DNA of 64,000 bases from an uncultured Bacteroidales bacterium (GTDB taxonomy: Bacteria; Bacteroidota; Bacteroidia; Bacteroidales; UBA7960): NCBI GenBank assembly GCA_964463915.1, contig CAYXEH010000001.1, positions 3,293 through 67,292 on the forward strand, written 5' to 3'. Made by a program: the position numbers and the translations under genes. The notes beneath the pieces were generated by a model that did not search any database, was not told the DNA's origin, and worked only from the letters and a program-made list of their open reading frames with translations. This document shows, in pieces, positions 3,551 to 45,716 of the stretch. Position 1 is the stretch's first letter. The number at the start of each line of letters is the position of its first letter.

Positions 3551-6525
3551 CAACTGAACAATCAAAATACCAATACGACGAGAAATTCGCCACCGACACC
3601 TATGAATTTAAGGAGATCTCCTACGAGGACCTGATGCAGAAACGGATCATCAATGTGTTGCTCATATGCAGCAACTATGATGCCTTTATGCTGGAGGAAG
3701 ACGGCCGGATTAATGAAAAGATCTTTCTGGAATACACCTCAAAAAACCTTCGTTACCCCCCCCAGTTCACCCAGGCCAGTTCTTCAGAAGAGGCTTTCCG
3801 CAAACTGGAGGAAAAGGACTATGACCTGGTAATCACCATGCTCAACGTGGGCAGGATCGATTGTTTTGAGATGGCCAAGAAAGTGAAGAAACGTCACCCG
3901 GGTATCCCCATCGTGGTGCTGACCCATTTCTCCAGGGAAGTATCCCTGAAACTTCGCAACGAAGACCTGAGTTCGATCGACTATGTATTCAGCTGGCTGG
4001 GCAACGCAGGGCTTCTGCTCGCTATTATTAAGCTACTGGAAGACAGGATGAATGCGGATTTTGACATCGAAAAAGTGGGGGTACAGGGCATTCTGCTGGT
4101 GGAAGATTCGGTCCGGTATTATTCATCTTATCTGCCTACCATTTATAAGGTGATTTTCGACCAGACCAATGAACTGATGACAGAAGGACTCAATGAGCAC
4201 CGTAAAACCCTGAGAATGCGGGCCCGCCCGAAAATCCTGCTGGCCAAGTCCTACGAGGAGGCCTTATCGCTGTACAAGAAATATAAAGACAACCTGTTAG
4301 GGATTATCTCAGATATCAGCTACGCCAAAGGAGGCAAAAGAGACAACCAGGCCGGGGTCAAGCTGGCCACCCATGTCCGGAAAAAAAACAGTCAGATTCC
4401 CATCCTGCTCCAGTCATCTGAAAAGTGGGATGCCAGGATTAACAAAAACATTGATGTCAGTTTTATTAACAAATATTCCAAAACACTGCTCATTGAACTC
4501 AAGCATTACATTAAGGAAAATTATGGCTTTGGTGATTTTGTTTTTAAAAACAAGGACACAGGCATGGAACTGGGCAGGGCCAATAATCTGCATTCCCTGC
4601 AGGTAAAGATCACCCATGCAGACCCTAAGGTTCTGGAGTACCATGTTTCCAATAATCATTTCTCCAGGTGGCTTAAAGCCCGGGCTCTGTTTTCGATCGC
4701 CAATGTGTTTGCCAAGAAAAGCCGCGATGATTTCAATAATGTGGAAGAGATCAGAAGCTACCTGATCGACACCATTGCCAATTACCGGCGCACAAAAGGC
4801 CGGGGGATCATCGCCAGTCATCTTGACGAATACGCTGTGTTCACCCGTTTGGGTGACGGCCAGCTGGGGGGCAAAGCACGTGGGCTGGCTTTCATTGACT
4901 CGGTGATCCACAAACACAAGATCATGAATCAATGGAATGGTGTGAGTATCTCCATCCCCCGCACTGTGGTACTGACCACTGATATCTTTGATGAATTCAT
5001 GGAGGAAAATGACCTCTACGATTTTGCGCTGTCTGACGTAAGCGATGAGGAAGTACTCAATCGTTTTGTCCAAAGTAAGAGTCCGTCCAGGATGCGCTCC
5101 TACATAAAAGAGATCGTCGACTTTTTTAAATCCCCGCTGGCCATCAGGTCATCCAGCTTGCTGGAAGATAGTCATTACCAGCCTTTTGCCGGGGTCTACT
5201 CCACATACATGATCTCCAATAATCACAACGACCGGAACGTGCGCATACAGCAACTGGACCAGGCCATCAAAAGTGTCTATGCCTCTGTTTTTTATCAGGA
5301 GAGCAAAGCCTATATCGAAGCCACATCCAATGTCATTGATGAAGAGAAAATGGCAGTGGTGATCCAGGAATTATCCGGACGATCCTATGGCAACATGTTT
5401 TATCCCACCATTTCAGGCGTAGCCAGGTCGGTAAACTTCTACCCCATTGAGCCGGAGAAATACGAAGACGGCGTGGCCAACATCGCCTTTGGCCTGGGCA
5501 AAACCATTGTGGATGGGGAGGTCTCTTTCCGCTTCTCGCCCAGGCATCCGCACAAAGCTTTACAGCTGGCCAACACCGATATCGCACTGCGTGACAGCCA
5601 GCGGGAGTTTTACAGCCTGAACCTGGATCCGGAGAAATATCACCCGGCAGTGGACGATTCAGTCAGCCTGAATAAACTCAGCATCCGTAAACTGAAAGGC
5701 TCTTCTTCACTGAAATATGTGGCCTCCACCTTTGATTATGAGGATCAGATCATTCGCGACGGAATCTATGAGGGAGGAACCCTTATCATCACCTTTGCCA
5801 ATGTGTTGAAGCACGGGTCTTTCCCCCTGGCCGATATCCTGAATAAATTGCTTCGCATCGGGCAAAGGGAAATGAACAACCAGGTAGAGATTGAATTTGC
5901 AGTAAGCCTGGATGTGCCCAAAGGTGAAAAACAACAATTTCATTTTCTTCAGATTCGCCCGGTGGTTGAAACACAGGAGAAAAATCAGGTCAAACTCAGT
6001 GCCCATAAAAAGAGCAGCACCCTCGTAATCAGTCATAATGCACTTGGCAATGGCATCATTGAAGGGATTCATGACTTCATTTATGTAAAGCCCGAATCAT
6101 TTGATGCAGCCCATACTGAAAAGATTGCCGAAACCATCGGAAAGTTAAATAAACAATGTCAGCAGGAGAAGAAACACTATATTCTGGCGGGCCCCGGTCG
6201 ATGGGGGTCCAATGACCCCTGGCTCGGCATTCCGGTTAAATGGGCACAAATATCGGCAGCCCGTCTGATCATCGAATCCGGCCTGAGGAATTTCAGGATC
6301 GACCCAAGCCAGGGCACCCATTTCTTCCAGAATCTTACCTCTTTCAGTGTCGGGTATTTCACCATCAACCCTTATATGAATGAAGGACATTATGATGTTG
6401 AGTTTCTCAACAAACAGGAAGCGATTTATGAAGATGAATTTGTCAGACACGTCCGTTTTGACTGCCCCCTCACCGTGAAAATTGACGGCAGCAAAAAGGC
6501 AGGAATTGTACTGAAACCAAGCTAA
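3547..6525 (+). CDS. Paralog of the preceding gene: pseudo-receiver, receiver, PEP/pyruvate-binding ATP-grasp domain and the same unknown C-terminal module, but no N-terminal sensor module.
   Basis: ATG at 3547 overlaps the upstream stop (ATGA). Motifs: ILLVEDSVRYYSSYLP, GIISDISY, QLGGKARGLAFID, LAIRSSSLLEDSHYQPFAGVYSTY, EEKMAVVIQE, SGVARSVNFYP. C-terminal ILAGPGRWGSNDPWLGIPVKWAQIS and SQGTHFFQN match LVGPGRWGTRDRFIGIPVNWSQIS and LGSHFFHN in the first paralog. Confidence 0.85.
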   Translation: MTTEQSKYQYDEKFATDTYEFKEISYEDLMQKRIINVLLICSNYDAFMLEEDGRINEKIFLEYTSKNLRYPPQFTQASSSEEAFRKLEEKDYDLVITMLNVGRIDCFEMAKKVKKRHPGIPIVVLTHFSREVSLKLRNEDLSSIDYVFSWLGNAGLLLAIIKLLEDRMNADFDIEKVGVQGILLVEDSVRYYSSYLPTIYKVIFDQTNELMTEGLNEHRKTLRMRARPKILLAKSYEEALSLYKKYKDNLLGIISDISYAKGGKRDNQAGVKLATHVRKKNSQIPILLQSSEKWDARINKNIDVSFINKYSKTLLIELKHYIKENYGFGDFVFKNKDTGMELGRANNLHSLQVKITHADPKVLEYHVSNNHFSRWLKARALFSIANVFAKKSRDDFNNVEEIRSYLIDTIANYRRTKGRGIIASHLDEYAVFTRLGDGQLGGKARGLAFIDSVIHKHKIMNQWNGVSISIPRTVVLTTDIFDEFMEENDLYDFALSDVSDEEVLNRFVQSKSPSRMRSYIKEIVDFFKSPLAIRSSSLLEDSHYQPFAGVYSTYMISNNHNDRNVRIQQLDQAIKSVYASVFYQESKAYIEATSNVIDEEKMAVVIQELSGRSYGNMFYPTISGVARSVNFYPIEPEKYEDGVANIAFGLGKTIVDGEVSFRFSPRHPHKALQLANTDIALRDSQREFYSLNLDPEKYHPAVDDSVSLNKLSIRKLKGSSSLKYVASTFDYEDQIIRDGIYEGGTLIITFANVLKHGSFPLADILNKLLRIGQREMNNQVEIEFAVSLDVPKGEKQQFHFLQIRPVVETQEKNQVKLSAHKKSSTLVISHNALGNGIIEGIHDFIYVKPESFDAAHTEKIAETIGKLNKQCQQEKKHYILAGPGRWGSNDPWLGIPVKWAQISAARLIIESGLRNFRIDPSQGTHFFQNLTSFSVGYFTINPYMNEGHYDVEFLNKQEAIYEDEFVRHVRFDCPLTVKIDGSKKAGIVLKPS

Positions 6526-6636: not shown

Positions 6637-7974
6637 ATGAATTTAGAAAAAATAATGGCAGATCTGGAGCGTAAGAATCCAGGCGAAAAAGAGTTCTTGC
6701 AGGCAGCAAGGGAAGTTTTGGAAACCATCATCGACGTGGTGGAAGAAAACCCAAAATACCAGGCTGCCAATATTATTGAACGGATCACCGAACCGGATCG
6801 CGTGATCTCCTTTAAAGTGGAATGGGTTGATGACAAGGGTAACGTTCAGGTAAACCGTGGCTTCCGCGTTCAGTTTAACAACGCCATCGGTCCTTACAAA
6901 GGAGGTTGCCGTTTCCACCCAAGTGTTACACTGAGCGGACTGAAATTCCTGGGCTTTGAGCAGATCTTCAAAAACAGTCTTACCACATTGCCTATGGGCG
7001 GTGCAAAAGGCGGAAGTGATTTCAACCCCAAGGGCAAATCACAGGCTGAGATCATGCGATTCTGCCAGGCATTCATGGCCGAACTTTACAAGTATATCGG
7101 TCCAGACACCGACATTCCTGCCGGTGACATCGGCGTAGGGGGTCGCGAGATCGGCTATATGTATGGTATGTACAAGAAACTGGTAGGCGAACACACCGGC
7201 ACCTTTACCGGTAAGGGACGCAACTGGGGCGGCAGCCTCATTCGCCCCGAAGCCACAGGTTTCGGTGCGGTTTATTTTGCCGAGGAAATGCTGAAGACCA
7301 AAGGTGAGAAGCTTACAGGTAAAACCGTTGCCCTCTCAGGTTTTGGTAACGTTACCTGGGGTGCAGCACTCAAGGCCACCCAGCTTGGAGCAAAAGTTTT
7401 AACCATCAGTGGACCTGACGGATATGTATACGACCCAGATGGCATTTCAGGTGAAAAGATCGATTATTTGCTGGAGCTGCGTGCCTCCAACCAGGACATC
7501 GTCAAACCATACACCTATGAATTCCCCAACGCCCAGTTCTTTGAAGGCAAGCGTCCCTGGGAACAAAAGGTAGACATTGCCATGCCTTGCGCCATTCAGA
7601 ACGAACTGGATGAAGAAGATGCCAAAAACCTGGTAAATAACGGGGTAATTGCCATTTCGGAAGGCGCCAACATGCCCTGTACAGCAGAAGCTGTAGAGAT
7701 CATCCAGGAAGCAAAGGTTCTCTATGGTCCCGGTAAGGCAGCCAACGCAGGTGGTGTAGCGACTTCCGGTCTGGAACAAACACAAAACGCCATGAAACTG
7801 AACTGGCCGGCAGAAGAAGTAGAAGAAAAACTGCATGAAATCATGAAGAACATCCATGAAGCATGCAAGAAATATGGTCAGGAAGAAGACGGGTATATCA
7901 ACTATGTAAAAGGTGCCAACGTGGCCGGCTTTATTAAGGTTGCCGATGCCATGATCGATCAGGGCGTAATCTGA
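6637..7974 (+). CDS. gdhA: NADP-specific glutamate dehydrogenase
   Basis: 445 aa, full-length hexameric GDH pattern: KGGCRFHPSV, LPMGGAKGGSDFNPKG (active-site Lys region), dinucleotide fold SGFGNVTWGAA. ATG start at 6637. Confidence 0.95.
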   Translation: MNLEKIMADLERKNPGEKEFLQAAREVLETIIDVVEENPKYQAANIIERITEPDRVISFKVEWVDDKGNVQVNRGFRVQFNNAIGPYKGGCRFHPSVTLSGLKFLGFEQIFKNSLTTLPMGGAKGGSDFNPKGKSQAEIMRFCQAFMAELYKYIGPDTDIPAGDIGVGGREIGYMYGMYKKLVGEHTGTFTGKGRNWGGSLIRPEATGFGAVYFAEEMLKTKGEKLTGKTVALSGFGNVTWGAALKATQLGAKVLTISGPDGYVYDPDGISGEKIDYLLELRASNQDIVKPYTYEFPNAQFFEGKRPWEQKVDIAMPCAIQNELDEEDAKNLVNNGVIAISEGANMPCTAEAVEIIQEAKVLYGPGKAANAGGVATSGLEQTQNAMKLNWPAEEVEEKLHEIMKNIHEACKKYGQEEDGYINYVKGANVAGFIKVADAMIDQGVI

Positions 7975-8109: not shown

Positions 8110-10341
8110 ATGAATCCTGGGAAAGAACTTGCATCAAGGTTTATCAACAGCACAGGCTGTCATGTATTTCTGACAGGGAAAGCTGGAACCGGGAAAACCA
8201 CCTTCCTGAGGGAATTAGTTGGTACTACCCACAAAAAAACAATCGTAGCAGCCCCCACGGGCATAGCATCCATCAATGCCGGCGGAGTCACCCTTCATTC
8301 CCTGCTTCAGCTTCCATTCGGGGCCTTCTGCCCAACGGAGGATTTGCCGGGAGGATACCCCATCCAAACGGAAATTTACACCTCAAAAAGCCTCCTGCGA
8401 AACAGCAGGTTTTTTGAGGCCAAACGAAGGCTGCTGCGTGAGATGGAACTGCTGATTATTGATGAGGTCAGTATGCTGCGGGCAGATACCCTTGATGCCA
8501 TTGATACCATCCTGCGTCATGTAAGGCGTATAAGCCATAGACCATTTGGCGGTGTACAGCTTCTTTTTATAGGTGACCTGCTGCAACTGCCCCCAGTAGT
8601 AAAAAAACAGGAATGGGCATTACTGAAGGCCCATTACCCCAGTCTGCATTTTTTTCATGCCAGGGCCTTGAAGCAGAACCCACCTCTTTACATTGAATTC
8701 GAGCACATATACCGTCAGCATGACCCTGTTTTCATCAACCTGCTGGCAAAGCTCAGGGAAAACAAAATGAACAGAAAGGATTTAGCTCTACTGAACCGCC
8801 ATGTAAAGCACGGGTTTGATCCGCTGGAAGAATCCGGTCAAATTTTCCTTACCACACACAACCATAAAGCAGACCTTATCAACAGCAGGGCCCTGGAAAA
8901 ACTTAAGGGTCAACCGCTGTATTTTGATGCGGCAATTACTGGTGATTTTAGTAAAGCTCTTTATCCGGCAGAGTATTCCCTGCAGCTCAAGATAGGCGCC
9001 CAGGTAATGTTTATCAAAAATGACCACACCGGCGAACAGCGATATTTCAACGGCAAAATTGGCACCATCGAAGAACTCAGCAAAGAAAGGATCGTGGTAG
9101 GTTTCCCGGATGGTTCTGCTCCTGCTGAGGTAGAACGTTACACCTGGGAAAACAAAAAATTCAACCTTAACAGGGTAAACAACGAAATTGAGGAAAAGGT
9201 GACCGGAACCTTTTCACACTATCCCATAAAACTGGCCTGGGCAGTTACCGTGCACAAAAGCCAGGGGCTGACATTTGACAAAGCGGTAATTGATGTTTCC
9301 GGGGCATTTGCACCGGGGCAGATCTATGTGGCATTGTCAAGACTCAGGGGCCTTGAAGGACTTGTACTGAGCGAACCGGTCCCGGAACAACAGTTTGCTC
9401 AGGATGACCATGTCAAATTTTTTTCAGCAGGCAAAAGCCCGGTGAAAGAATTAAAACAAAAGCTTCAATCAGAATCCAGGCACTTCATTGAACAAGAACT
9501 TTCAGATACTTTCAATTTTGATCAGTTGCAGGAAAACCTCCGGCACCACCTACGGGGATATGACAAAAAAGAAGGTCGTTCAGTAAAGCAGTCAAACAAG
9601 TCATGGGCGGAGAATTTAATCCGCGAATTCCTGCCCGTTAAAACGATTGCTGACCGTTTTTCAAACCAGTTAAAACGCGACTTAAGTAATCATGAACTCG
9701 TCTACATAAGAAGCAGGGTACATAAGGCGAATGACTATTTTTCTCCTTTGCTGAGGAAGGTTTCTGAACAAATTTTCGAGCACATTTCCAGTGTCAGTGA
9801 ACAAAGCGGCACAAAAGGGTATGTGCGTGAATTACGTGAGTTGGAATCCGGATTCCATGCGCGGGTTCAAAAGTTACACAAAATGGAATCCCTGATCACG
9901 GCCATACTGGAAAATACAGAACCAACCCGCGACAATACACAGAATCCCGGGCTGATCAGGGATCGGGAAGATATGCTGGAAGAATTCAGCAAAGGCATTC
10001 TTGCCAAAAACAAACAGAAATCCCCCCGGCCGGCTAAAGGAAAACCAGCCAAAACACCATCCGCCGAGGTAAGTCTCCAGCTTTTCCTGGATGGAAAGAG
10101 TATGGAGGAAATTATTGAGATCCGGTCTCTTGCCTACAGCACCATTCAGTCGCATATGGTCAGTTGCGTGCAAAAAGGTCTCATTGATGCAGAACGGTTT
10201 GTGGAAAAAGAAAAAATGACACAAATCATGAAAGCCTCAGAAGCCATAGGAAGCAGGAAAGCCGGCGACATCATGGCCGTACTTGGAGATGAATTCTCAT
10301 TTGCCGAAGTGAGGATGGTAATGGCAGGAAAAAACGAATAA
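8110..10341 (+). CDS. PIF1/RecD-like SF1 helicase with C-terminal helix-turn-helix-like domain
   Basis: Walker A LTGKAGTGKTTFL, Walker B LLIIDEVSML, LLFIGDLLQLPPV, late SF1 motifs VHKSQGLTFD and YVALSRL. The C-terminal ~90 aa (SLAYSTIQSHMVSCVQKGLID) resembles the HTH tail seen on bacterial Pif1-like helicases. Confidence 0.8.
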   Translation: MNPGKELASRFINSTGCHVFLTGKAGTGKTTFLRELVGTTHKKTIVAAPTGIASINAGGVTLHSLLQLPFGAFCPTEDLPGGYPIQTEIYTSKSLLRNSRFFEAKRRLLREMELLIIDEVSMLRADTLDAIDTILRHVRRISHRPFGGVQLLFIGDLLQLPPVVKKQEWALLKAHYPSLHFFHARALKQNPPLYIEFEHIYRQHDPVFINLLAKLRENKMNRKDLALLNRHVKHGFDPLEESGQIFLTTHNHKADLINSRALEKLKGQPLYFDAAITGDFSKALYPAEYSLQLKIGAQVMFIKNDHTGEQRYFNGKIGTIEELSKERIVVGFPDGSAPAEVERYTWENKKFNLNRVNNEIEEKVTGTFSHYPIKLAWAVTVHKSQGLTFDKAVIDVSGAFAPGQIYVALSRLRGLEGLVLSEPVPEQQFAQDDHVKFFSAGKSPVKELKQKLQSESRHFIEQELSDTFNFDQLQENLRHHLRGYDKKEGRSVKQSNKSWAENLIREFLPVKTIADRFSNQLKRDLSNHELVYIRSRVHKANDYFSPLLRKVSEQIFEHISSVSEQSGTKGYVRELRELESGFHARVQKLHKMESLITAILENTEPTRDNTQNPGLIRDREDMLEEFSKGILAKNKQKSPRPAKGKPAKTPSAEVSLQLFLDGKSMEEIIEIRSLAYSTIQSHMVSCVQKGLIDAERFVEKEKMTQIMKASEAIGSRKAGDIMAVLGDEFSFAEVRMVMAGKNE

Positions 10342-10431
10342 ACCGAATTTCTATATAAATTTTATTGATATTTACAAGTTTTTCTTCCAAAAAAATATAT
10401 ACTATTTCTTTTGGCTGACCGATGATTTTTT

Positions 10432-10995
10432 ATGTATTATTGCCTCGAAAAACGACAATTCACGGAATTTATGCGCATTCAACGAATTCAACCCACCACG
10501 CCTCAGCAGGAAACCACCCGGGAATCGGTTGACCTGACTTTGATGGATGAACTACTGGAGAAATACAAAAACCAAAAAGGGAATTTAATTCCCTTACTCC
10601 AGGGAACCCAGGACATATATGGCTATCTCCCGAAAGCAGCATTTGCAAGAATTCACCGGGCAACCGGGCTGGAGCTGAATGAAATGTACGGGGTTGCCAC
10701 ATTCTATGCCCAGTTCAGGCTGGAACCCGCCGGCAAGTATATTGTGAAAATGTGCCATGGCACCGCATGCCACGTACAAAATGTGACTGCCATCACAGAT
10801 GAGATACTGGATACTTTAGGGATTAAGGACGGGGAAACCACCAGCGACGGGATCCTCACTGTAGAGACCGTAGCCTGCCTCGGCTGTTGTTCACTGGCGC
10901 CCGTAATGATGATTGGAGATGAAACTTACGGAAAACTTACCCCGAAAGAAGCCGTCCGCATCATCAAAGAAATACGCAGAAACGAGAACGGATAA
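10432..10995 (+). CDS. NuoE/HydC-like thioredoxin-like [2Fe-2S] ferredoxin subunit
   Basis: GNLIPLLQGTQDIYGYLP, CHGTACHV, CLGCCSLAPVMMI give the four-Cys pattern of the 24-kDa NuoE family. The start is uncertain: alternative Met codons at 10471 and 10543. Confidence 0.85.
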   Translation: MYYCLEKRQFTEFMRIQRIQPTTPQQETTRESVDLTLMDELLEKYKNQKGNLIPLLQGTQDIYGYLPKAAFARIHRATGLELNEMYGVATFYAQFRLEPAGKYIVKMCHGTACHVQNVTAITDEILDTLGIKDGETTSDGILTVETVACLGCCSLAPVMMIGDETYGKLTPKEAVRIIKEIRRNENG

Positions 10996-11015
10996 ACACA
11001 AAAACTATATTGACA

Positions 11016-12794
11016 ATGGGAAACACAAAGGTTATTGTGGGATTGGGTAGCTGCGGAATTGCAGCAGGAGCCAACAAGACCTACAATGAGTTTCAGCGCA
11101 TCATGAAAGCTGACAAGCTGGATTTCGAATTGAAAAAAACCAGCTGTATCGGCATGTGCTACAGGGAACCTTTGGTAGAGATCATCGACGACAATGGTAC
11201 CTACCTTTATGGGGAAGTAAACCAGGAAAGGGTCGAAGACATCATCGATAAGCACATCAAAAAATTCTCACCCATTCCCGAGTATATTGTACAATCAGAC
11301 AAGTATCCTTCAAAAGACCAGGCCTTTTTTGACGGACAGGTGAAGATCAGCCTGCGTAATTGCGGGCACATCGACCCGGAATCCATCGAAGAATACGAGG
11401 CGAGAGACGGATACGAAGCGATTCGTAAGATCGCCAGGGAAAAGCTCAGTCCTGCATCCGTCATTCAACAGGTACTTGATTCAGGGATCCGCGGGAGGGG
11501 TGGCGGAGGATTTCCCACAGGCTTAAAGTGGAAGTTCGCGCACAACAACAAGTCTGACAAAAAATATGTGATCTGCAATGCCGACGAAGGTGACCCCGGT
11601 GCCTTCATGGACCGCTCCATCCTGGAGGGTGACCCGCATGGGGTACTCGAGGGCATGATCATATGTGGCTATTCAATCGGGGCAAGTGAAGGATACATTT
11701 ATTGCCGGGCAGAGTATCCCCTGGCCATCAAGCGGCTCAACCTCGCCATTAAACAGGCGCATGAGAAGGGTTACCTGGGCAAAGACCTCTTCGGCATCAA
11801 AGGCTTTCACTTTGACCTGAAGATCAAAGAGGGTGCCGGAGCCTTTGTTTGTGGGGAGGAAACTGCCCTGATCGCCTCCATTGAAGGGGCCCGCGGCATG
11901 CCCCGAAGGCGCCCGCCATTTCCTGCGGAAGCAGGATTATGGAAACATCCCACCAACATTAACAACGTAGAGACATTTATCAATATTCCCTGGATCATTC
12001 ATCAGGGGCCCCAGGCCTATGCGCAGTACGGCACCGAGAAAAGCAAAGGCACCAAGGTGTTTGCCCTCACCGGGAAGATCCGTCACGGAGGGCTGGTGGA
12101 AGTCCCCATGGGAATCACCATCAAGGACATTATTTATAAACTGGGAGGCGGTATCACCGGAGACAAGAAATTCAAAGCAGTACAGCTTGGAGGCCCTTCC
12201 GGCGGATGCATTCCGGAATATCTTTCACATACCCGGGTGGATTATGACTCGGTCAATGCCACCGGTGCCATTATGGGATCAGGCGGAATGGTGGTTATGG
12301 ATGAAACAACCTGCGTCGTGGACATTGCAAAATTCTTCCTTGATTTCACCCAGAAAGAATCCTGCGGGAAATGTACCTTCTGCCGGCTGGGCACCAAAAG
12401 AATGCTGGAGATCCTTACCCGGATCACAGAGGGAGAAGGTCGCGAAGGCGACATTGAAATGCTGGAGCAACTGGCGGAAACAATTAAAGACAGTTCTTTG
12501 TGCGGATTGGGGCAAACCGCGCCCAACCCCGTTCTGACTACCCTTAAGTACTACCGGGATGAGTATGAGGCGCACATCCGCGACAGGAAGTGCCCGGCGC
12601 TCAGCTGTAAGAAATTGCTGACTTACACAGTGATTGAAGAGAATTGTACCGGTTGTACCGTTTGCGCCAAAGGTTGCCCGGTAAATGCCATTGAAGGCGA
12701 AAGGAAACAAATCCATCATATTGACCAGGATATATGCATCCAATGTGGAGTTTGTTTTACGCGCTGTAAATTCGATGCCATCAAATTGTCTTAA
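11016..12794 (+). CDS. NuoF/HydB-like NAD(H)- and FMN-binding subunit with extra N-terminal [2Fe-2S]-like and C-terminal 2x[4Fe-4S] domains
   Basis: GRGGGGFPTGLKWKF, ICNADEGDPGAF, ESCGKCTFCRLG, SLCGLGQTAPNP, plus ferredoxin motifs CTGCTVCAKGCP and CIQCGVCFTRC. The track start at 11010 is TTG; the first ATG is at 11016. Confidence 0.9.
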   Translation: MGNTKVIVGLGSCGIAAGANKTYNEFQRIMKADKLDFELKKTSCIGMCYREPLVEIIDDNGTYLYGEVNQERVEDIIDKHIKKFSPIPEYIVQSDKYPSKDQAFFDGQVKISLRNCGHIDPESIEEYEARDGYEAIRKIAREKLSPASVIQQVLDSGIRGRGGGGFPTGLKWKFAHNNKSDKKYVICNADEGDPGAFMDRSILEGDPHGVLEGMIICGYSIGASEGYIYCRAEYPLAIKRLNLAIKQAHEKGYLGKDLFGIKGFHFDLKIKEGAGAFVCGEETALIASIEGARGMPRRRPPFPAEAGLWKHPTNINNVETFINIPWIIHQGPQAYAQYGTEKSKGTKVFALTGKIRHGGLVEVPMGITIKDIIYKLGGGITGDKKFKAVQLGGPSGGCIPEYLSHTRVDYDSVNATGAIMGSGGMVVMDETTCVVDIAKFFLDFTQKESCGKCTFCRLGTKRMLEILTRITEGEGREGDIEMLEQLAETIKDSSLCGLGQTAPNPVLTTLKYYRDEYEAHIRDRKCPALSCKKLLTYTVIEENCTGCTVCAKGCPVNAIEGERKQIHHIDQDICIQCGVCFTRCKFDAIKLS

Positions 12795-12821
12795 GCACTA
12801 AAATATACAACCTGCTGACCT

Positions 12822-15800
12822 ATGAGTAAGCTCAATATCATCATAAACGGAAAGATCTTTCAGGGATACCAGGGAGAAACCATCCTGGAAATGTCTCGTC
12901 GCCTCAATATCGAAATACCCACGCTTTGCAACGACGACAGGCTGGAGCCTTTCTCCTCCTGCTATTTGTGTGTGGTGGAGGTGGAAGGAATGCGTGGCCT
13001 GCAACCTGCCTGCTCAACCAGGGTAACGGAGGGAATGCGTATTGAAACAGATAATGAAAGGGTGCGCAAGTCAAGGCAGTTTGCCCTGGATCTACTGGTA
13101 AGTAACCATTATGCCGATTGCGTCCCCCCTTGTAAGGAAGAGTGTCCTGCAGGAGTAGATGTGCAGGGATATATCTCCATGATTAGCAAGGGGAAATACA
13201 GGGAAGCCGTTGAACTGATCAAACAGACCAATCCTCTGCCGGCCATATGCGGCAGGGTTTGCGTCCGGCCGTGTGAGGATGTCTGCCGTCGCAACCTACT
13301 GGAAGAAGTGGGTGTTGGAATTGATTACCTGAAACGCTACACCTCTGACATCGACCTTTTCTCTCCGGATCGTTTCATGCCTGAAGTAAAACCGGATACG
13401 GGGAAGAATGTGGCCGTAATCGGAGCAGGGCCCGGAGGGCTCACCGCAGCTTACTTCCTGGCCAAAGAAGGGCACCGGGTGGAAATTTTCGAGGCTCATA
13501 AACATGCCGGCGGGATGCTTCGTTACGGAATCCCTCCCTATCGTCTTCCCAACGACATTATCGACAAGGAGGTTGAAGGGATTACCAGGCTGGGGGTAAA
13601 GATCCACTATGAACAAAAACTCGGTGACAACCTGAGTTATCAAACACTGAAAGACCAGTTCGACTCGGTAATCCTGGGGATCGGCTCACAGAAAGGAACC
13701 GGGATTGGATGCGAAAACGACGATGCCGGTAATATTTTTTCCGGAATCGACTTTTTAAGGAACATGGAGGCGACCGGGCAGAAGTATGACTTCACCGGAA
13801 AAAGGGTGGCAGTGATTGGTGGGGGAAACACAGCCATGGACTGTTGCCGGACAGCGAAACGCTGTGGGGCTGAAGAGGTAACGGTCATTTACCGGCGTAC
13901 TGAAAAGGAAATGCCCGCAAACCCCATTGAGATTCATGAATCCAAACTGGAAGGGATCAATTATATGTTTCTGACTGCCCCGGCCAAAGTGAATAAAGAT
14001 GACGAGGGCAATCTGGAATCCCTGACCTGCATACGAATGCAGCTCGGAGAACCTGACGCTTCGGGAAGAAGGCGGCCGGTTAAAATTGAAGGTTCCGAAT
14101 TTGATGTAGAATTGGATTACATCCTGGCAGCCATCGGTCAAAAAACAGTGGTCGATTTTATTGAGGATATCAGCAAGCACTCAGATAAAGAACTGAAACT
14201 CAACAAATGGGGCGACATTGATGCTGCTCAGGGTACTTTACAAACTTCCATTGACAGTGTGTTTGCCTGTGGAGACGGGGTCACAGGCCCGGCCACCCTG
14301 ATAGAAGCCATCGCCCAAGGGAGGATTGCTGCACAAAGTTGCAATAAATTCCTTGGACAACAACCGGTGACTCCAGCAGACAAAGAGTTTCTGAGCAAAA
14401 AAGACAACTTTGAAAAACAACAGAAAGAAGAATACCAGGGATATTTCCAGGCACAGCTCAGGGAGGAAATGCCTACCCTGGATCCGGATAAAAGAAACAA
14501 TTTTGAGGAGGTGGAAAGGGGCTATTCTGATGAGGCAGCCCAAAATGAAACGCAACGTTGCCTGGAGTGTGGTTGTTCTGAACTCCATACCTGCGACCTG
14601 AAACAATATGCCACCACCTACGGGGCGGAGCAGAAAAAATTCGGGGGAGATTATAAAAAGCACCACGTAGACTTTTCCCACCCTTATGTGGAAATTGACA
14701 ACAACAAGTGTATCCTGTGCTCCCGTTGCATCAGGATTTGCTCCGAAATGAACGGCGCCAATGCACTGGGCCTGGTAAACCGGGGGTTCGAAACCTATGT
14801 GGCTCCAAGTATGGATGGTCCTTTATCGGCCACAAACTGCGACTCATGCGGTTTATGTATTGATACCTGCCCCACCGGGGCAATCACGGAAAACGTTCCT
14901 TTTAAAACCATGCCGGTCAAAACAGACATGACCACTACAATCTGCAATTATTGCTCTATCGGATGTACGGTTTCCTATCACCATAAAGACGGGTTTGCAG
15001 GAAGGGCCACAGGAAGTGCAGGACTGGTGAACAAGGACGGCAGTATCTGCCGGCAAGCCAAGTTCGGCTACCGTTACCTGAATGAGTCCGGTCGCCTTAC
15101 CCATCCTATGAAGAAAGTAAATGGAAGTTTTGAAGCGATCAGTTTCAGGGAAGCATGGAAGCTCATCAAGGAGAAGGTTGCAGCAGTCCGGCCCGAAGAA
15201 AACGGGGTATATATCGGGGCAAGACTGACCAATGAAGAGATCTACCTGCTTCAGAAGCTGGCAAGGGCCGGATTGGGCACGGCTAATGTGGATAGTTTCC
15301 ATTATATGGGCCGCGGAAACGGTTACCTGGAAAACAGTCGTCACGTGGTCCCGATGGATCAGATCCGTCAGGCCAAAAAAATCTATTTTCTGGACAGTGA
15401 GATAAGCAAGGACAACCCGGTAGCAGGGTTTTATGCCGTCAATACCGCTTTTAAGGAAGCCGCAAAGCTGGAGTTGATCACCACAAGGGAAAATAGCAGC
15501 ATGGCGCATAAGGCTGATATCGTTACCGGTATTCAGTCCCCTTACCATTTTGTCAAGGCAACCATCCATTTTATCCTGTCCAATAAAATGGAGAATGGGG
15601 TGTACCTTGATGATCACTGCATGGATTTTGACAGCTACCGTAAGAAAGCACTTTCAGAAAGCTTTGACAAACTGATCCGGGAGGCCGGATGTACGCCGGG
15701 ACAAATTGCCCGCTTTGCAGAGGAATTCAACAGGGAAGCCCAGGCACTGATCATGTTTTCTGAGAAGGACCTTTCGGCCAACACCTGCCAGGAATTACGG

Positions 15801-16544
15801 AACCTTTGTCATCTGACCGGGAAATCCGGCAAAACGGGAACCGGCCTTCTCCCACTTAAGGAAAAGAACAATGCACAGGGGCTCTTTGATATGGGTGCAA
15901 ACTCAAAACTTGCACCAGGAGGAGGGGACATCCGCAATGACAAAGTGAGGGCCTCCCTTGCTGAGGCATGGAAAGTAAGCAACCTGCCCGCCGAAGCAAC
16001 AGAGGAACAGTGGGAACTCCTTAATTCAGGTAAAATTAAAAATGCATTTATCTTCGGAGAAGACCCCCTGGGATGCGCCATCAATAAAGAGGAGATGGAA
16101 AGAGCCCTGGACAAAACCGGGTTTCTGGTGGTACAGGATCTGTTTATGAGTGAAACAGCCGGTAAAGCCGACCTGGTGTTGCCGGCATCCCTGCATATGG
16201 AGATCGGTGGCAGTTTTACCAATACCCAGCGATTCATCCAGCAATTTGAGGCCAATTGGTCAGGGCCGTTGAAAAAGAACAGCTTTGACCAGCTACTCAA
16301 TTTGCTTGCTTTATTTGATGTGAAAGCTGATTACGAAGGACCGGCTGAGGTTATGCTGGAAACAGCTGCCATGATGCAGGCTGCCGCTGAATCTGCCAGT
16401 GGCCCATGCAGGCTGGTACACACAGACAATGACAACCAGGACAGGAAATTTGATTATGGATGCGACATCCTGACCAAAAAATTCGAAACAGCCTGGAATG
16501 AATCATTTAACAACATTAAAGAAACAAGCTATGAAAACGTTTAA
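12822..16544 (+). CDS. 1240-aa fusion oxidoreductase: 2Fe-2S ferredoxin, GltD/NfnB-like NADPH-FAD module, NuoG/HydA-type Fe-S domains and a degenerate formate-dehydrogenase-like (molybdopterin oxidoreductase fold) domain
   Basis: aa 1-80 CNDD..CYLC..ACST. aa 85-160 CVPPCKEECPAG..AICGRVCVRPCEDVC (GltD N-terminal Fe-S). aa 195-510 VIGAGPGGL, VIGGGNTAMDC, ACGD. aa 575-690 CLECGC..C, CILCSRCIRIC, CDSCGLCIDTCP. aa 705-720 ICNYCSIGC. The remainder aligns by eye to E. coli FdhH but reads NVDSFHYMGRG where FdhH has NVDCCARVUHG. Confidence 0.85.
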   Translation: MSKLNIIINGKIFQGYQGETILEMSRRLNIEIPTLCNDDRLEPFSSCYLCVVEVEGMRGLQPACSTRVTEGMRIETDNERVRKSRQFALDLLVSNHYADCVPPCKEECPAGVDVQGYISMISKGKYREAVELIKQTNPLPAICGRVCVRPCEDVCRRNLLEEVGVGIDYLKRYTSDIDLFSPDRFMPEVKPDTGKNVAVIGAGPGGLTAAYFLAKEGHRVEIFEAHKHAGGMLRYGIPPYRLPNDIIDKEVEGITRLGVKIHYEQKLGDNLSYQTLKDQFDSVILGIGSQKGTGIGCENDDAGNIFSGIDFLRNMEATGQKYDFTGKRVAVIGGGNTAMDCCRTAKRCGAEEVTVIYRRTEKEMPANPIEIHESKLEGINYMFLTAPAKVNKDDEGNLESLTCIRMQLGEPDASGRRRPVKIEGSEFDVELDYILAAIGQKTVVDFIEDISKHSDKELKLNKWGDIDAAQGTLQTSIDSVFACGDGVTGPATLIEAIAQGRIAAQSCNKFLGQQPVTPADKEFLSKKDNFEKQQKEEYQGYFQAQLREEMPTLDPDKRNNFEEVERGYSDEAAQNETQRCLECGCSELHTCDLKQYATTYGAEQKKFGGDYKKHHVDFSHPYVEIDNNKCILCSRCIRICSEMNGANALGLVNRGFETYVAPSMDGPLSATNCDSCGLCIDTCPTGAITENVPFKTMPVKTDMTTTICNYCSIGCTVSYHHKDGFAGRATGSAGLVNKDGSICRQAKFGYRYLNESGRLTHPMKKVNGSFEAISFREAWKLIKEKVAAVRPEENGVYIGARLTNEEIYLLQKLARAGLGTANVDSFHYMGRGNGYLENSRHVVPMDQIRQAKKIYFLDSEISKDNPVAGFYAVNTAFKEAAKLELITTRENSSMAHKADIVTGIQSPYHFVKATIHFILSNKMENGVYLDDHCMDFDSYRKKALSESFDKLIREAGCTPGQIARFAEEFNREAQALIMFSEKDLSANTCQELRNLCHLTGKSGKTGTGLLPLKEKNNAQGLFDMGANSKLAPGGGDIRNDKVRASLAEAWKVSNLPAEATEEQWELLNSGKIKNAFIFGEDPLGCAINKEEMERALDKTGFLVVQDLFMSETAGKADLVLPASLHMEIGGSFTNTQRFIQQFEANWSGPLKKNSFDQLLNLLALFDVKADYEGPAEVMLETAAMMQAAAESASGPCRLVHTDNDNQDRKFDYGCDILTKKFETAWNESFNNIKETSYENV

Positions 16545-16986
16545 CTCTGTAGATGAGATCCTTGATTTTGCCATGCAATCAGAACAGGAGGCTGTGGATT
16601 TCTACAACGGGCTGGCAGAAAGAATGAAAAACGAGGAAATGAAACAGGTTTTCCTCCAGTTTGCCAGGGAAGAAGTCGGACACAAAGCAAGGCTCCGTAA
16701 AATCAAAGAAGAAGGACTGTTTGACATGGATGTGGAGAAAGTGAAAGATCTTAAGATCGCCGATTACGTTGTTCAGTCAGGGGATGCCGGTGAGATGGAA
16801 TACAGGGATGCCCTGATACTTGCCATGAAAAAGGAAAAAGCAGCCTTTAAGCTATACACGAAGCTTTCGGAACGCACGGACCATCCTGAACTCCGGAAAG
16901 TATTTCAGGCACTGGCCGTAGAAGAATCCAAACACAAACTTCGGTTCGAACTTGAATACGATGACCATGTGATGCGTGAAAACTAA
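16531..16986 (+). CDS. Rubrerythrin/ferritin-like diiron protein (no rubredoxin domain)
   Basis: Two E...ExxH half-sites: EQEAVDFY...AREEVGHKARL and EKAAFKLY...VEESKHKLRFE. The likely ATG at 16531 (MKTFNSV) overlaps the end of the fusion gene by 14 nt. The track start at 16498 is less likely. Confidence 0.8.
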   Translation: MKTFNSVDEILDFAMQSEQEAVDFYNGLAERMKNEEMKQVFLQFAREEVGHKARLRKIKEEGLFDMDVEKVKDLKIADYVVQSGDAGEMEYRDALILAMKKEKAAFKLYTKLSERTDHPELRKVFQALAVEESKHKLRFELEYDDHVMREN

Positions 16987-17004
16987 TTTTTCATTTAGGA
17001 AATT

Positions 17005-17047
17005 GCAAAGAAAAGGGGACCTCATTCTGAAGTCCCCTTTTCTTTGC
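17005..17047. terminator. Bidirectional terminator hairpin between convergent rubrerythrin-like and hsp20 genes
   Basis: Perfect 16-bp inverted repeat gcaaagaaaaggggac / gtccccttttctttgc with an 11-nt loop. The arms are A/T-rich on both strands. Confidence 0.8.
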
Positions 17048-17065
17048 ATGCCCAATAGAAATCAG

Positions 17066-17503
17066 TTATGAAATATCAATTTGCTTTGGCGCTTTGCGCC
17101 TGGCTTCTTCCCGTTTCGGGATAACCACCAGTAAAATACCGTCCTTGTGTTTGGCCTTGATATTTTCGGCATCCACCGCATCAGGTAAGCTAAAAGAACG
17201 GCTGAAGGATGAATAGCTAAACTCTCTGCGCATGTACTTATCCCCATCCTTTTGCTCATCTTTATGCTCTTTTTCAGATGAGATGGTAAGTACATTGTTG
17301 TCCAGATCTACTTTAAAATCTTTTTTGTCCAACCCTGGTGCAGCCACTTCAATCTGGTAATCGTCATTGGTTTCCTTGACATTTACAGCAGGTGTGCTGA
17401 TCCCGGGCTGTTCACTGAAAACACTATCCATCCAATCCTTTCCGAAAAATTCATCAATAAAACTGGGCATGTTTTCACGGTTTCGTCTTCGCATTGGTAA
17501 CAT
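17066..17503 (-). CDS. Small heat-shock protein, Hsp20/alpha-crystallin family
   Basis: PAVNVKETNDDYQIEVAAPGLDKKDFKVDLDNNVLTISSEK...FSRSFSLPDAVDAENIKAKHKDGILLVVIPK. AAGGAGG sits 8 nt upstream of the ATG. Confidence 0.92.
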   Translation of the reverse strand: MLPMRRRNRENMPSFIDEFFGKDWMDSVFSEQPGISTPAVNVKETNDDYQIEVAAPGLDKKDFKVDLDNNVLTISSEKEHKDEQKDGDKYMRREFSYSSFSRSFSLPDAVDAENIKAKHKDGILLVVIPKREEARRKAPKQIDIS

Positions 17504-22715: not shown

Positions 22716-23963
22716 TTAGTTTGTTGCTTCACGAAACTTATCTAAATGCCTCAGCCTCTGTAACAGGGGTGGATGTGAATAGTACACATAAACATAAGCA
22801 GGATGGGGCCGAAGATTGCTCAGGTGATTAACCGACAACTTTTTAAGTGCCTCCTGAAGGGGTTCCGGATCATACTTCCTGGCCGCAAAGGCGTCGGCTT
22901 CATATTCATACCTGCGACTCATCCGGTTACTGATAATACCAAGAAGCAAAGAAATAGGAGAATACAACAAACCGAAAGCAAGTATTCCCATATGAAAGCT
23001 TGCCTCCTGTGCACCAAGGGCCATAGATAATTCAGGACGGTTAATAAACAGTCCCAGCAAGAAAAGCATGATCCCTGTATGAAGCACAGAAACTGCCATC
23101 CCCTTAACGGTATGCTTTTTCTTGTAATGTCCGATCTCATGAGCCAGGACAGCCACGAGTTCTTCGGTGGTGTGTTCTTTGATCAGTGTGTCAAATAGCA
23201 CAATGCGTTTTTTCGGGCCAAGACCGCTGAAATAAGCGTTGGCTTTGGAACTCCTTTTGGATCCGTCAATCACAAAAATATTATCCAGCCGAAACCCGGC
23301 CTTATCAGCAAAATCCTCGATGGCCGACCGCAGGGGGCCCTCTTCCAGGGGCCTTTGTTTATTGAACATTGGGACAATCAGGGTACTGTAAAACATCATC
23401 ATGAACACACTGAACCCGGTAACAACAATCCAGGCATACAGCCAGAAAAGGTTGCCGGCCGTGTCATAGAACCAGACAAAAACTGCGAGAAGCCCCCCGC
23501 CGATCACCAGGGCAATCATCCATCCCTTGATCTTGTCAAGCACATAGGTCTTTGGAGTGGTTCTGTTAAACCCGAAACGTTCCTCGATCACAAAAGTTCC
23601 GTAAAGATCAAATGGTGTCGACAAAATATCCGAAGCCAGCCCCAGAATACCAAAAAACAACAGGGCCATCCACACGGGATGTTCTGTATAGTTTCTTACC
23701 AGACTGTCCAGGTAGCCGAATCCTCCCAGCACAAGCATCAGTAAAATAAAGAGGAAAGAAAGGGTGCCTGTAAGGATGCCAAAGCGCATATTCGCCCTTG
23801 AATACTCCTGGGATTTGCGGTATTTTTCTTCATCATAAATCCCCCTGAGTTCATCTGGAAGTTTCTTACTCCACCGGCTGGCATTGAGGTAATCCATCAC
23901 ACGATCAAAAACATAATCCAGTACGATAATGGTGACAATAACATACAATATCGATTGTTCCAT
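22716..23963 (-). CDS. Ste24/HtpX-type M48 zinc metalloprotease, polytopic membrane protein
   Basis: HEIGHYKKKH zinc motif, multiple hydrophobic segments, long N-terminal region typical of CAAX-protease-like M48A enzymes. Confidence 0.85.
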   Translation of the reverse strand: MEQSILYVIVTIIVLDYVFDRVMDYLNASRWSKKLPDELRGIYDEEKYRKSQEYSRANMRFGILTGTLSFLFILLMLVLGGFGYLDSLVRNYTEHPVWMALLFFGILGLASDILSTPFDLYGTFVIEERFGFNRTTPKTYVLDKIKGWMIALVIGGGLLAVFVWFYDTAGNLFWLYAWIVVTGFSVFMMMFYSTLIVPMFNKQRPLEEGPLRSAIEDFADKAGFRLDNIFVIDGSKRSSKANAYFSGLGPKKRIVLFDTLIKEHTTEELVAVLAHEIGHYKKKHTVKGMAVSVLHTGIMLFLLGLFINRPELSMALGAQEASFHMGILAFGLLYSPISLLLGIISNRMSRRYEYEADAFAARKYDPEPLQEALKKLSVNHLSNLRPHPAYVYVYYSHPPLLQRLRHLDKFREATN

Positions 23964-26223: not shown

Positions 26224-27234
26224 TTATTTGATCGGTCCTTCATCAGAGCCAGACTTTCCGGACGATTTACTGCTTCCCGGTTTGCTGATCTGCTCCCTCA
26301 TGGAAGTGTCTGCCTGAATATTTTGCATGCGATAATAATCCATGATACCAAGGTTTCCGCTCCGGAAGGATTCGGAGATGGCCTTGGGAATTTCTGCTTC
26401 TTCCTGGATTACCTTGGCCCTGGCTTCCTGTGCCTTGGCCTTCATCTCCTGCTCGGCAGCAACGGCCATAGCGCGGCGCTCCTCAGCCTTGGCCTGTGCA
26501 ATGTTCTTATCGGCATTGGCCTGATCGATCTGCAACATGGCACCGATGTTTTTACCCACATCAATGTCTGCAATATCGATGGAAAGAATCTCATAAGCTG
26601 TACCTGAATCAAGTCCCTTTGACAGCACTACCTTGGAAATACTGTCGGGGTTTTCCAGTACTTGTTTATGATGCTGGGCAGATCCGATGGACGTAACGAT
26701 TCCTTCACCCACCCTGGCCAGGATGGTCTCTTCTCCGGCACCACCAACGAGTTGTTTGATATTGGCACGGAGGGTTACACGGGCCTTGGCCACCAACTGA
26801 ATACCATCTTTGGCAACGGCCGCAACCGGCGGTGTATTGATCACCTTGGGTTTCACCGACATCTGTACCGCTTCAAGCACATCACGTCCTGCCAGATCGA
26901 TGGCAGTAGCGGTTTTGAAATCGAGCGGGATATTCGCTTTATCGGCACTGATCAGGGCATTGACCACGGCTTTCACCCGTCCCCCAGCCAGGTAGTGTGC
27001 TTCCAGGTCATTACGGTTCAGTGTAAGACCCGCTTTGGTTGCCGAGATCAGGTTGTTGACAATCACTGCCGGTGGTATTTTACGCCAGCGCATGAGCACC
27101 AGCTGCAACAGACTGATCCGCACGCCCGAAACCAGGGCAGAAAACCAGAGTCCGACAGGAATGAAATAAAAAATGATCCATAAACCCACGATCGCCACCA
27201 GGGCAATGGCTACAATAATACCAATGTCTTCCAT
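26224..27234 (-). CDS. floA: Flotillin-like protein FloA (UPF0365/YqfA family, SPFH fold)
   Basis: N-terminal [52 protein letters not shown], which is highly characteristic of YqfA/FloA. C-terminal Ala/Glu-rich coiled region. Confidence 0.88.
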
Positions 27235-27237
27235 GTG

Positions 27238-45560: not shown

Positions 45561-45716
45561 CCGGGGCATCTCGCTGACCTCCGGGGCACCTTGTTGACAT
45601 TCCGGCGGCATTTTGCTGACCTCCGGGGCATCTTGTTGACATTCCGGCGGCATTTTGCTGACCTCCGATGGGATTTTACTGGCTTCCGGGAGTCTCTTGC
45701 TAACTTCCGGGGGATC
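45561..45716. repeat. Tandem array of about 7.5 units of 21 bp filling the coaE to PorQ-like spacer
   Basis: Units begin with ccgg: ccggggca[c/t]cttgttgacatt / ccggcggcattttgctgacct. The 42-bp block 45581-45622 is repeated at 45623-45664 with a single mismatch. Degenerate units continue to 45716. Confidence 0.9.

Follow-up and report, generated by a model that had tools for sequence, protein, structure and literature searches.

A Bacteroidales gene cluster that very probably encodes an Stn/NfnABC-type transhydrogenase and ends in a tightly linked di-iron gene

What enzyme is encoded by a compact block of NuoE-like, NuoF-like and GltD-containing genes in a Bacteroidales genome, and what place does the small di-iron protein gene at the end of the block have in it? 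The block lies in a stretch of 64,000 nucleotides from an uncultured Bacteroidales bacterium (GTDB lineage UBA7960; contig CAYXEH010000001.1 of assembly GCA_964463915.1, positions 3,293 to 67,292 of the forward strand), which we call the window and whose own numbering is used here. An initial annotation, made from the letters alone, had described four tightly packed genes on the same strand. The list of open reading frames (ORFs) of the window agrees with this, giving four ORFs on the + strand at 10432-10995, 11010-12794, 12822-16544 and 16498-16986, and after correction of the gene starts (see below) the intergenic spacings are 20 nt, 27 nt and -14 nt, the last being an overlap. The comparisons reported here suggest that the cluster is very probably the Bacteroidales orthologue of the Stn/NfnABC (Nfn-Bfu) electron-bifurcating, or confurcating, transhydrogenase. 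The initial annotation had proposed a Stn-like NADH/ferredoxin:NADP+ transhydrogenase of the Bfu family, and sequence, architecture, cofactor ligands and synteny all support that proposal. The genes of the cluster are as follows.

10432..10995, + strand: BfuC/StnA/NfnC homologue, NuoE-like, 187 aa (PF01257, E 7e-48)
11016..12794, + strand: BfuB/StnB/NfnB homologue, NuoF-like, 594 aa as the ORF from 11010
12822..16544, + strand: BfuA/StnC/NfnA homologue, GltD/NuoG fusion, 1240 aa
16531..16986, + strand: rubrerythrin-like ("erythrin") di-iron gene, 151 aa (PF02915, E 1.9e-17)

The three large proteins share their top three matches in the Protein Data Bank (PDB), namely 8OH5 (Sporomusa ovata StnABC), 9BOV (Csac NfnABC) and 9N5U (archaeal NfnABC), and the order of the genes, NuoE-like, NuoF-like and fusion, is that found in Sporomusa, Caldicellulosiruptor and C. 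carboxidivorans. The activity and mechanism of Stn/NfnABC enzymes have been described (PMC7483475, Kremp 2020; PMC10482914, Kumar 2023; PMC11829005; PMC12018979). Domain annotation with Pfam and NCBIfam confirmed what had been read from the letters, that is, a NuoE-like protein, a NuoF-like protein with extra ferredoxin clusters, a GltD/NuoG fusion and a rubrerythrin-like gene. In the 187-aa protein both databases recognise a NuoE-like 2Fe-2S_thioredx domain, its best PDB matches are 9bov_C (E 1.4e-54), 9n5u_C (1.8e-51) and 8oh5_A (4.5e-51), and its four cluster Cys (Cys108/113/149/153) are kept in a C-x4-C-x35-C-x3-C pattern.

The NuoF-like protein carries, by the same annotation, Complex1_51K, SLBB and NADH_4Fe-4S domains followed by a C-terminal 2x[4Fe-4S] domain, with a weak thioredoxin-like match at the N-terminus. 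Its residues 7-592 align to StnB and NfnB with all Cys motifs present, and 22 of its 24 Cys are 100% conserved among 69 sequences; the invariant ones include the N-terminal three-Cys set, the B1 [4Fe-4S] set, the linker pair and both C-terminal clusters. The region that binds flavin mononucleotide (FMN) aligns with that of the solved enzymes. All features of a bifurcating BfuBC core were thus found, namely the FMN/NADH site, the B1 [4Fe-4S] cluster, the BfuC [2Fe-2S] cluster C1 and the ferredoxin domain, and the Cys/His linker site (Zn or cluster) and N-terminal thioredoxin-like domain are present as well. Among PDB entries the protein scored highest with StnB (8oh5_B, 878 bits, E 3e-263), the archaeal NfnB (857 bits, 7e-257) and Csac NfnB (846 bits, 2e-253), ahead of NiFe-HydB (737 bits), FeFe-HydB (722-617 bits) and an Fdh (formate dehydrogenase) beta subunit (409 bits). 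By this ranking of scores, which is not a tree, the NuoF-like subunit groups with the Nfn-type and not with Bfu members of the hydrogenase or Fdh type.

The big subunit has the domain order Fer2_4 (PF13510), Fer4_20 (PF14691) with Pyr_redox_2 (PF07992, the GltD part), Fer4_Nqo3 (PF22117), Molybdop_Fe4S4 (PF04879) and Molybdopterin (PF00384), and can be divided into four parts.

12822..13115, + strand: N-terminal [2Fe-2S] domain, BfuA residues 1-98 (PF13510; aligned with StnC 1-101)
13116..14516, + strand: GltD/NfnL-like NADPH-FAD (flavin adenine dinucleotide) module with two [4Fe-4S] clusters, residues 99-565 (PF14691 and PF07992)
14517..15092, + strand: four [4Fe-4S] sites, residues 566-757 (PF22117, PF04879)
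15093..16544, + strand: degenerate, predicted inactive, formate-dehydrogenase-like domain, residues 758-1240 plus stop (PF00384 only)

The best PDB match of this protein is 9BOV (E 1e-237); the other two of the three solved complexes follow with E-values of 9e-234 and 1e-183. We aligned it with a StnC of near-identical sequence, that of Sporomusa sp. KB1 (98% across the 770 residues used as query), and with an NfnA from Caldicellulosiruptor, and found the alignment to be colinear from end to end over the full length. Identity to StnC and NfnA was 46-49% in the N-terminal and GltD parts (48% to both StnC and Csac NfnA in residues 99-565 taken separately); the Fe-S linker reached 41-44%, and the Fdh-like domain 22-27%. 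The FAD-binding stretch GAGPGGL and the NADPH-binding stretch GGGNTAMD...YRRT..EMPA align with StnC and Csac NfnA.

Conservation of the cluster ligands was followed across 78 aligned sequences of the big subunit, taken from related genomes. The [2Fe-2S] ligands C36/C47/C50/C64, the Cys of the GltD clusters (C100/104/108 and C143/147/151/155) and those of residues 566-757 (C580/583/585/591, C630/633/636/640, C673/676/679/683 and C708/711/715/743) are all 100% conserved, and the last four sets are also present in StnC and Csac NfnA. Those four sets correspond to a CxxCxC...C motif, two ferredoxin-type CxxCxxCxxxC motifs and the Molybdop_Fe4S4 motif CxxCxxxC...C. In total, 31 Cys at ligand positions of BfuA, together with the clade-specific C143, are invariant, and the ligand count gives one [2Fe-2S] and six [4Fe-4S] clusters, matching the number reported for StnC. 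Cys143 ('PAICGRVC', window 13248-13250) is found in every one of these sequences, which come from Bacteroidota and Ignavibacteria, and is Ile in Csac NfnA and StnC and Leu in the archaeal NfnA; one of the two clusters of the GltD part may have altered ligands here. Loss of cofactor ligands on careful alignment had been named as an outcome that would count against the transhydrogenase assignment. The FAD, NADPH and FMN regions and the cluster Cys are all kept, and the functional assignment therefore stands.

The initial annotation had also supposed that the large C-terminal domain lies outside described Stn enzymes. This proved wrong. In StnC (1172 aa) the N-terminal domain carries a [2Fe-2S] cluster and is followed by a GltD domain (aa 102-565), by clusters of the NuoG type and by a catalytically inactive FdhF-like domain (aa 683-1172) (PMC10482914). 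Csac NfnA (1178 aa, 130 kDa) begins with its N-terminal domain, continues with an NfnL-like one and ends in an Fdh/NuoG-like one; its pterin site is incomplete, and a side branch of Fe-S clusters leads to a dead end (PMC11829005). The additional domain is the inactive FdhF-like domain of these two proteins, and since the whole domain order is that of the characterised StnC/NfnA family, an outcome that the initial annotation had itself named as refuting, the claim of novelty fails.

Instead of a transhydrogenase, the protein could be read as an NADPH-dependent sulfur or polysulfide reductase (Nso-like), a soluble reductase of Fe(III) (Sfr-like) or the small subunit of a glutamate synthase. Some Firmicute homologues are named 'NADPH-Fe(3+) oxidoreductase subunit beta' in UniRef, NsoABC of Thermococcus litoralis is a homologue (PMC7483475), and the best NCBIfam model is 'putative NADPH-dependent glutamate synthase small subunit', yet its score of 649 bits is below the cut-off of 916. 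However, the complete NuoE/NuoF-like core fits Stn/NfnABC, whereas SfrAB is not known to have such a pair (compare Fig. 4 of PMC7483475); Nso itself is probably a transhydrogenase according to the authors of PMC7483475; and no large subunit of glutamate synthase is adjacent. A function of this kind is very improbable. The glutamate synthase small subunit in particular was rejected on the NCBIfam score under the cut-off and on the large subunit not being nearby.

Does the C-terminal domain make the enzyme an NAD(P)H-linked Fdh, or another molybdopterin oxidoreductase? The source names of close homologues would have it so. Real Fdhs match the last 440 aa more strongly (E 6e-36) than do the C-terminal parts of StnC and NfnA, and an AF2 (AlphaFold2) monomer model of residues 690-1240 (pLDDT 91.4) gave Foldseek matches to Fdhs with a TMq of 0.80, compared with 0.78 for Csac NfnA and 0.73 for StnC. 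The clade keeps an Fdh segment of ~31 residues (residues ~1029-1059, window ~15906-15998) that is deleted in Firmicute StnC/NfnA, and its big subunit lacks a C-terminal insertion of the Firmicute proteins; for these reasons the last 440 residues score higher against true Fdhs. The residues of the active site, however, are missing. Cys is missing from the whole stretch between residues 744 and 932, in-frame stops and Sec are lacking too, and the domain therefore has no metal ligand. In place of the C/U-H active-site segment, which in Fdhs comes after the conserved 'NNVD' stretch, stands 'SFHY' (residues 825-828), which is 96-99% conserved in the clade, and in the alignment to FdhF of the hydrogen-dependent CO2 reductase (7qv7_S) the 'CARLCH' segment is deleted from the window protein. 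Where aligned Fdhs read 'PLRGQNNVQG' the window protein reads 'PLKEKNNAQG', with a Lys (K1013, at least 97% conserved in the clade) at the position of the catalytic Arg, Arg333 in the numbering of E. coli FdhH. Pfam matched 22 families at E <= 0.001, and the pterin-capping domain IV, PF01568 (Molydop_binding), is not one of them; alignments to Fdhs stop near Fdh residue 806 of 989, the window protein ending before the cap domain. The same degenerate, pterin-free state has been documented in StnC (PMC10482914) and Csac NfnA (PMC11829005). A formate dehydrogenase or other molybdoenzyme was rejected on the missing ligand Cys/Sec, the Lys in place of the catalytic Arg and the unmatched cap domain, and this reading of the locus is almost certainly wrong.

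The C-terminal domain is, to judge from these residues, a degenerate and catalytically inactive Fdh. It would serve as a non-catalytic scaffold that carries a dead-end Fe-S branch; in S. ovata, StnC's FdhF-like domain is required for assembly and oligomerisation (PMC10482914). Bacterial members of this type are tetramers of heterotrimers that BfuA joins together. Within the clade the domain evolves faster than the rest of the protein (mean identity 46% vs 73% elsewhere), and 57 of its residues are at least 97% conserved. An [FeFe]-hydrogenase of the HydABC type was likewise rejected, there being no H-cluster domain in the A subunit: Pfam gave no Fe_hyd_lg_C match in the big subunit, and hydrogenase models match only its N-terminal Fe-S parts with scores far below the cut-off. 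The statement of the initial annotation that the cluster has neither a hydrogenase nor a formate dehydrogenase active site is supported.

The known systems nearest to the window cluster are the following. StnABC of Sporomusa ovata (8OH5/8OH9) has the same three genes in the same order, the same domain order in the big subunit and the same cofactor-ligand count; identity is 46-48% across the N-terminal and GltD parts but only 27% across the Fdh-like domain. It differs in the length of the big subunit (1172 aa vs 1240 aa in the window); the window clade has the ~31-residue Fdh segment and Cys143 and lacks the Firmicute C-terminal insertion. Sporomusa is an acetogen whose operon lies beside Wood-Ljungdahl genes and is followed by anthranilate-synthase-type genes rather than a rubrerythrin-like gene, whereas the window host belongs to the Bacteroidales and no Wood-Ljungdahl gene was seen among the window genes scanned. 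Csac NfnABC (9BOV/9BP5) is the best PDB match for both the big and the NuoE-like subunits; it has the same three-domain NfnA, the same incomplete pterin site with its dead-end side branch and the same N-terminal 3-Cys pattern in the NuoF-like subunit. Identity falls from 48-49% over the N-terminal and GltD parts to 26% over the Fdh-like domain. Its host is a thermophilic Firmicute, and the Caldicellulosiruptor operon has an Fe-ADH (iron-type alcohol dehydrogenase) gene downstream and no rubrerythrin-like gene. The archaeal Nfn-BfuABC of Thermococcus sibiricus (9N5U, PMC12018979) and NsoABC of T. litoralis share the core architecture and the BfuBC module. The archaeal NfnA, however, is shorter (963 aa), lacks part of the C-terminal domain, is monomeric and is without three Cys of one ferredoxin-type cluster, those aligned to C673/676/679 of the window protein.

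How would such an enzyme work? By analogy with the solved enzymes, from which the mechanism is carried over by homology, NADP(H) would bind at a non-bifurcating FAD in the GltD/NfnL-like module of the 1240-aa subunit, and electrons would pass in one-electron steps along the [4Fe-4S]/[2Fe-2S] chain of that subunit to the FMN of the NuoF-like subunit. The bifurcation site would consist of this FMN, the adjacent [4Fe-4S] cluster (B1) and the [2Fe-2S] cluster of the NuoE-like subunit. It would couple NAD(H), by hydride transfer at the FMN, with ferredoxin (Fd), which would be served by the C-terminal 2x[4Fe-4S] domain of the NuoF-like subunit. For a member of the Bacteroidales that lives by fermentation, the likely physiological direction would be NADH + Fd(red) + 2 NADP+ -> NAD+ + Fd(ox) + 2 NADPH, as a supply of NADPH for biosynthesis.

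Several points weigh against the assignment as a Stn/NfnABC orthologue. The characterised enzymes are only 46-49% identical to the window protein over the N-terminal and GltD parts, and 22-27% over the Fdh-like domain, and that domain is nearer to real Fdhs in the window clade than it is in StnC and NfnA. The GltD Fe-S region of the clade has one extra invariant Cys (C143). NADPH formation is inferred as the direction in vivo. Finally, the characterised operons do not include the conserved di-iron gene, so the clade could have an added or altered third reaction.

The tightly linked, lineage-specific di-iron gene is the only part of the cluster that goes beyond the characterised systems. Its product belongs to the Rubrerythrin family of Pfam and is COG1633/TM1526-like. 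The di-iron ligands E18/E48/H51/E102/E132/H135 (E/ExxH/E/ExxH) are 100% conserved among 64 sequences. An AF2 model is a four-helix bundle whose top fold match is TM1526 (TM 0.75), and the best PDB matches by sequence are 2fzf and 1vjx. TM1526 (1VJX) and P. furiosus 2FZF, which are uncharacterised COG1633 ferritin-like di-iron-carboxylate proteins, have the same fold and the same E/ExxH/E/ExxH pattern at an identity of ~23%. There is no Cys anywhere in the 151 aa, which makes a rubredoxin domain impossible. A rubrerythrin proper was rejected accordingly, as the C-terminal rubredoxin-like FeCys4 domain is absent and the NCBIfam model RuberyRbr scored 20.6 bits vs a cut-off of 200.

In 60 of 71 Bacteroidota/Ignavibacteria loci with enough downstream sequence, the big-subunit gene is directly followed by the di-iron gene in the same orientation. 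The gap between them has a median of about 15 nt, and in several loci, including the window, the stop and start of the two genes overlap. In two further loci the di-iron gene is ~3.7 kb away, and in nine no copy was found within ~1 to 6 kb of downstream DNA. No di-iron gene lies downstream of the operon in the three Firmicutes checked (Sporomusa, Caldicellulosiruptor and C. carboxidivorans), and a text search for rubrerythrin turned up nothing in the Stn biochemistry paper (PMC7483475) or in the archaeal structure paper (PMC12018979). A rubrerythrin-family gene linked to a BfuBC core is a feature of the 'Rub-Bfu' (Type 4) systems, which are predicted to consist of BfuBC and rubrerythrin without BfuA and to reduce peroxide (Schut et al. 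2022, PMC9304861). Membership of the window cluster in Rub-Bfu was rejected: there the rubrerythrin gene directly follows bfuB, whereas in the window a complete Nfn-type BfuA stands between bfuB and the rubrerythrin-like gene, which comes after bfuA.

Is the di-iron protein, then, a fourth component of the enzyme? It could dock on the big subunit, perhaps where the Fdh-like domain has its dead-end Fe-S branch, and the complex would then also, or instead, send electrons from NAD(P)H and ferredoxin to H2O2 or O2, as an Nfn/Rub hybrid of the predicted 'Rub-Bfu' type; we consider this unlikely. The position directly downstream in 60 of the 71 loci with its short median gap and occasional overlaps, the invariant di-iron ligands and the absence of the gene from the three Firmicute operons speak for such a coupling. 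So do the role of the dead-end clusters C1/C2 of StnC, which is 'not clearly understood' (PMC10482914), the peroxide reduction predicted for clusters of BfuBC with rubrerythrin (PMC9304861) and the 57 highly conserved residues of the Fdh-like domain. On the other hand, adjacency by itself is no proof of physical or electron-transfer coupling, and rubrerythrin-like genes are common stress genes that often stand beside redox enzymes. The nine loci without a nearby copy and the two with a distant one also speak against it, as do the di-iron protein, which has no rubredoxin domain or other obvious site of electron entry, and the 240 listed homologues, among which there are no fusion proteins. In addition, metatranscriptome contigs of related strains cover the di-iron gene, yet none that spans its junction with the big-subunit gene was recovered at >=85% likeness.

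There is thus only a small chance that the Bacteroidota/Ignavibacteria have an Nfn-Bfu with a dedicated di-iron component fed by the 'dead-end' branch, acting both as transhydrogenase and as a peroxide/O2 reductase driven by NAD(P)H and ferredoxin, and we think it improbable that the di-iron protein is a true functional partner of the complex. If it were, the orphan clusters of the Fdh-like domain would gain a function. The gene is a lead on the purpose of the dead-end clusters of NfnA/StnC and on a possible coupling of Bfu cores to peroxide or oxygen reduction. The erythrin-like product is most likely an accessory or protective protein and probably not a core catalytic subunit of the transhydrogenase; co-expressed with it, the protein would scavenge peroxide or O2 near an Fe-S-rich, oxygen-sensitive enzyme.

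At least 545 related loci came to light when one genome per species was scanned, and Nfn-type BfuB in Bacteroidetes had already been listed by Schut et al. 2022 (PMC9304861). The best 80 of these loci are 57-86% identical over the full length and come almost all from metagenome-assembled genomes labelled Bacteroidales, Bacteroidota or Ignavibacteria, several of the closest relatives being from soda-lake sediments; the gene order NuoE-like, NuoF-like, fusion is kept in all 80. In two protein searches, at least 7,996 and at least 7,999 of 8,000 candidates scored with E <= 1e-50. Homologues carry source names such as 'formate dehydrogenase major subunit', 'molybdopterin-dependent oxidoreductase' and 'FAD-dependent oxidoreductase'. 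The first two of these names (P0026, P0034, P0073 and others) look like a systematic misannotation because the active-site residues are missing. Thousands of homologues would accordingly have to be taken for NADPH-binding subunits of bifurcating transhydrogenases, and metabolic reconstructions of Bacteroidales and Ignavibacteria from anoxic sediments would lose a formate dehydrogenase and gain a connection among the pools of NADH, ferredoxin and NADPH.

The host is an uncultured Bacteroidales from a soda or hypersaline lake mat, and 96-99% of the sampled words of the window are present in runs labelled as microbial-mat and hypersaline-lake metagenomes. Metatranscriptome contigs of closely related salt-lake strains cover the genes of the cluster and span the junctions between the NuoE-like and NuoF-like genes and between the NuoF-like and big-subunit genes.

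The gene starts were corrected by comparison with homologues. For the NuoF-like gene the start is most likely the ATG at 11016 (giving MGNTKVIVGLGSCG) rather than the TTG at 11010, because the alignment with StnB begins at MKVRVGLGSCG. The fourth gene most likely starts at the ATG at 16531, which gives 151 aa and a 14-nt overlap with the big gene, and not at the ATG at 16498; the alignment of its homologues from 63 related loci begins at the Met of the former. In the NuoE-like ORF the first ~30 residues are unaligned to the solved enzymes (the query begins at residue 30-40) and lie outside the tblastn matches in relatives, and the start codon is uncertain because these residues are not common to relatives. 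Two non-coding elements flank the cluster.

10342..10431, + strand: candidate promoter region, AT-rich (22% GC), intergenic, 5' of the first gene, predicted
17004-17024 and 17028-17048, both strands: arms of a hairpin, 17 perfect pairs, 21 with one mismatch

The candidate promoter region has one TAnnTTTG-like site at 10406, with one mismatch and the TTTG at 10410, and a sigma-70 scan gave a weak 9/12 match at 10411-10440. The hairpin begins eighteen bases past the last stop codon, that of the fourth gene, and has an inner stem GGGGAC/GUCCCC followed by UUUUCUUU on the + strand. Folded as the + strand it has an energy of -34 kcal/mol (z-score -6.5) and as the - strand one of -41 kcal/mol (z-score -7.7), and none of 200 shuffled sequences folds as well. 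A simple terminator scan did not pick it up, because the loop and the T-run fall outside the rule of the scan; it was found by folding and by a repeat finder. Standing between the convergent rubrerythrin-like (+) and hsp20 (-) genes, it is a candidate bidirectional intrinsic terminator. The perfect hairpin of 16 bp that the initial annotation had placed at the end of the set is confirmed, and its role as a terminator is that of a candidate. The Hsp20/alpha-crystallin gene (17066-17503, -) runs towards the cluster, and the two have the hairpin in common. Its contigs in two salt-lake metatranscriptomes have a word depth of up to ~1,585 (X16) and ~55-59 (X17), far above that of the transhydrogenase genes, which is mostly 1-15.

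Apart from a glutamate dehydrogenase of the NADP type, no further redox or energy-metabolism gene was seen among the window ORFs scanned, and the wider context therefore adds nothing on function; the remaining window is ordinary chromosomal housekeeping. The glutamate dehydrogenase gene (6637-7974, +) scores 819 bits with the NCBIfam model 'glutamate dehydrogenase' and 712 bits with 'NADP-specific glutamate dehydrogenase', in both cases above the cut-off, stands ~2.5 kb upstream of the cluster with a helicase gene in between, and its product is a plausible consumer of NADPH. The helicase gene (8110-10341, +), immediately upstream of the cluster, encodes a PIF1/RecD-like SF1B helicase with a C-terminal HTH_40, and was found upstream of the cluster in only one of the 80 related loci (L013, 57% identity). 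Further upstream, two overlapping genes (59-3550 and 3547-6525, +) encode proteins of 1163 and 992 aa, each with only PPDK_N (the ATP-binding domain of PEP/pyruvate dikinase, PEP being phosphoenolpyruvate) in the C-terminal half. The second also has a response-regulator receiver domain, and the N-terminal ~450-600 residues of both have no family match, making this an unusual pair. Three ORFs of 695, 279 and 406 aa (23986-26073, -; 34393-35232, +; 44433-45653, -) gave no Pfam match (at 1e-5 for the first and 1e-6 for the others), and the first gave no NCBIfam match at 1e-10 either. At 26224-27708 (-) a flotillin-like FloA gene is followed by an NfeD-like gene, a classical membrane-microdomain pair, and two genes for M48/HtpX-type peptidases (22716-23963 and 27705-28508) lie near it.

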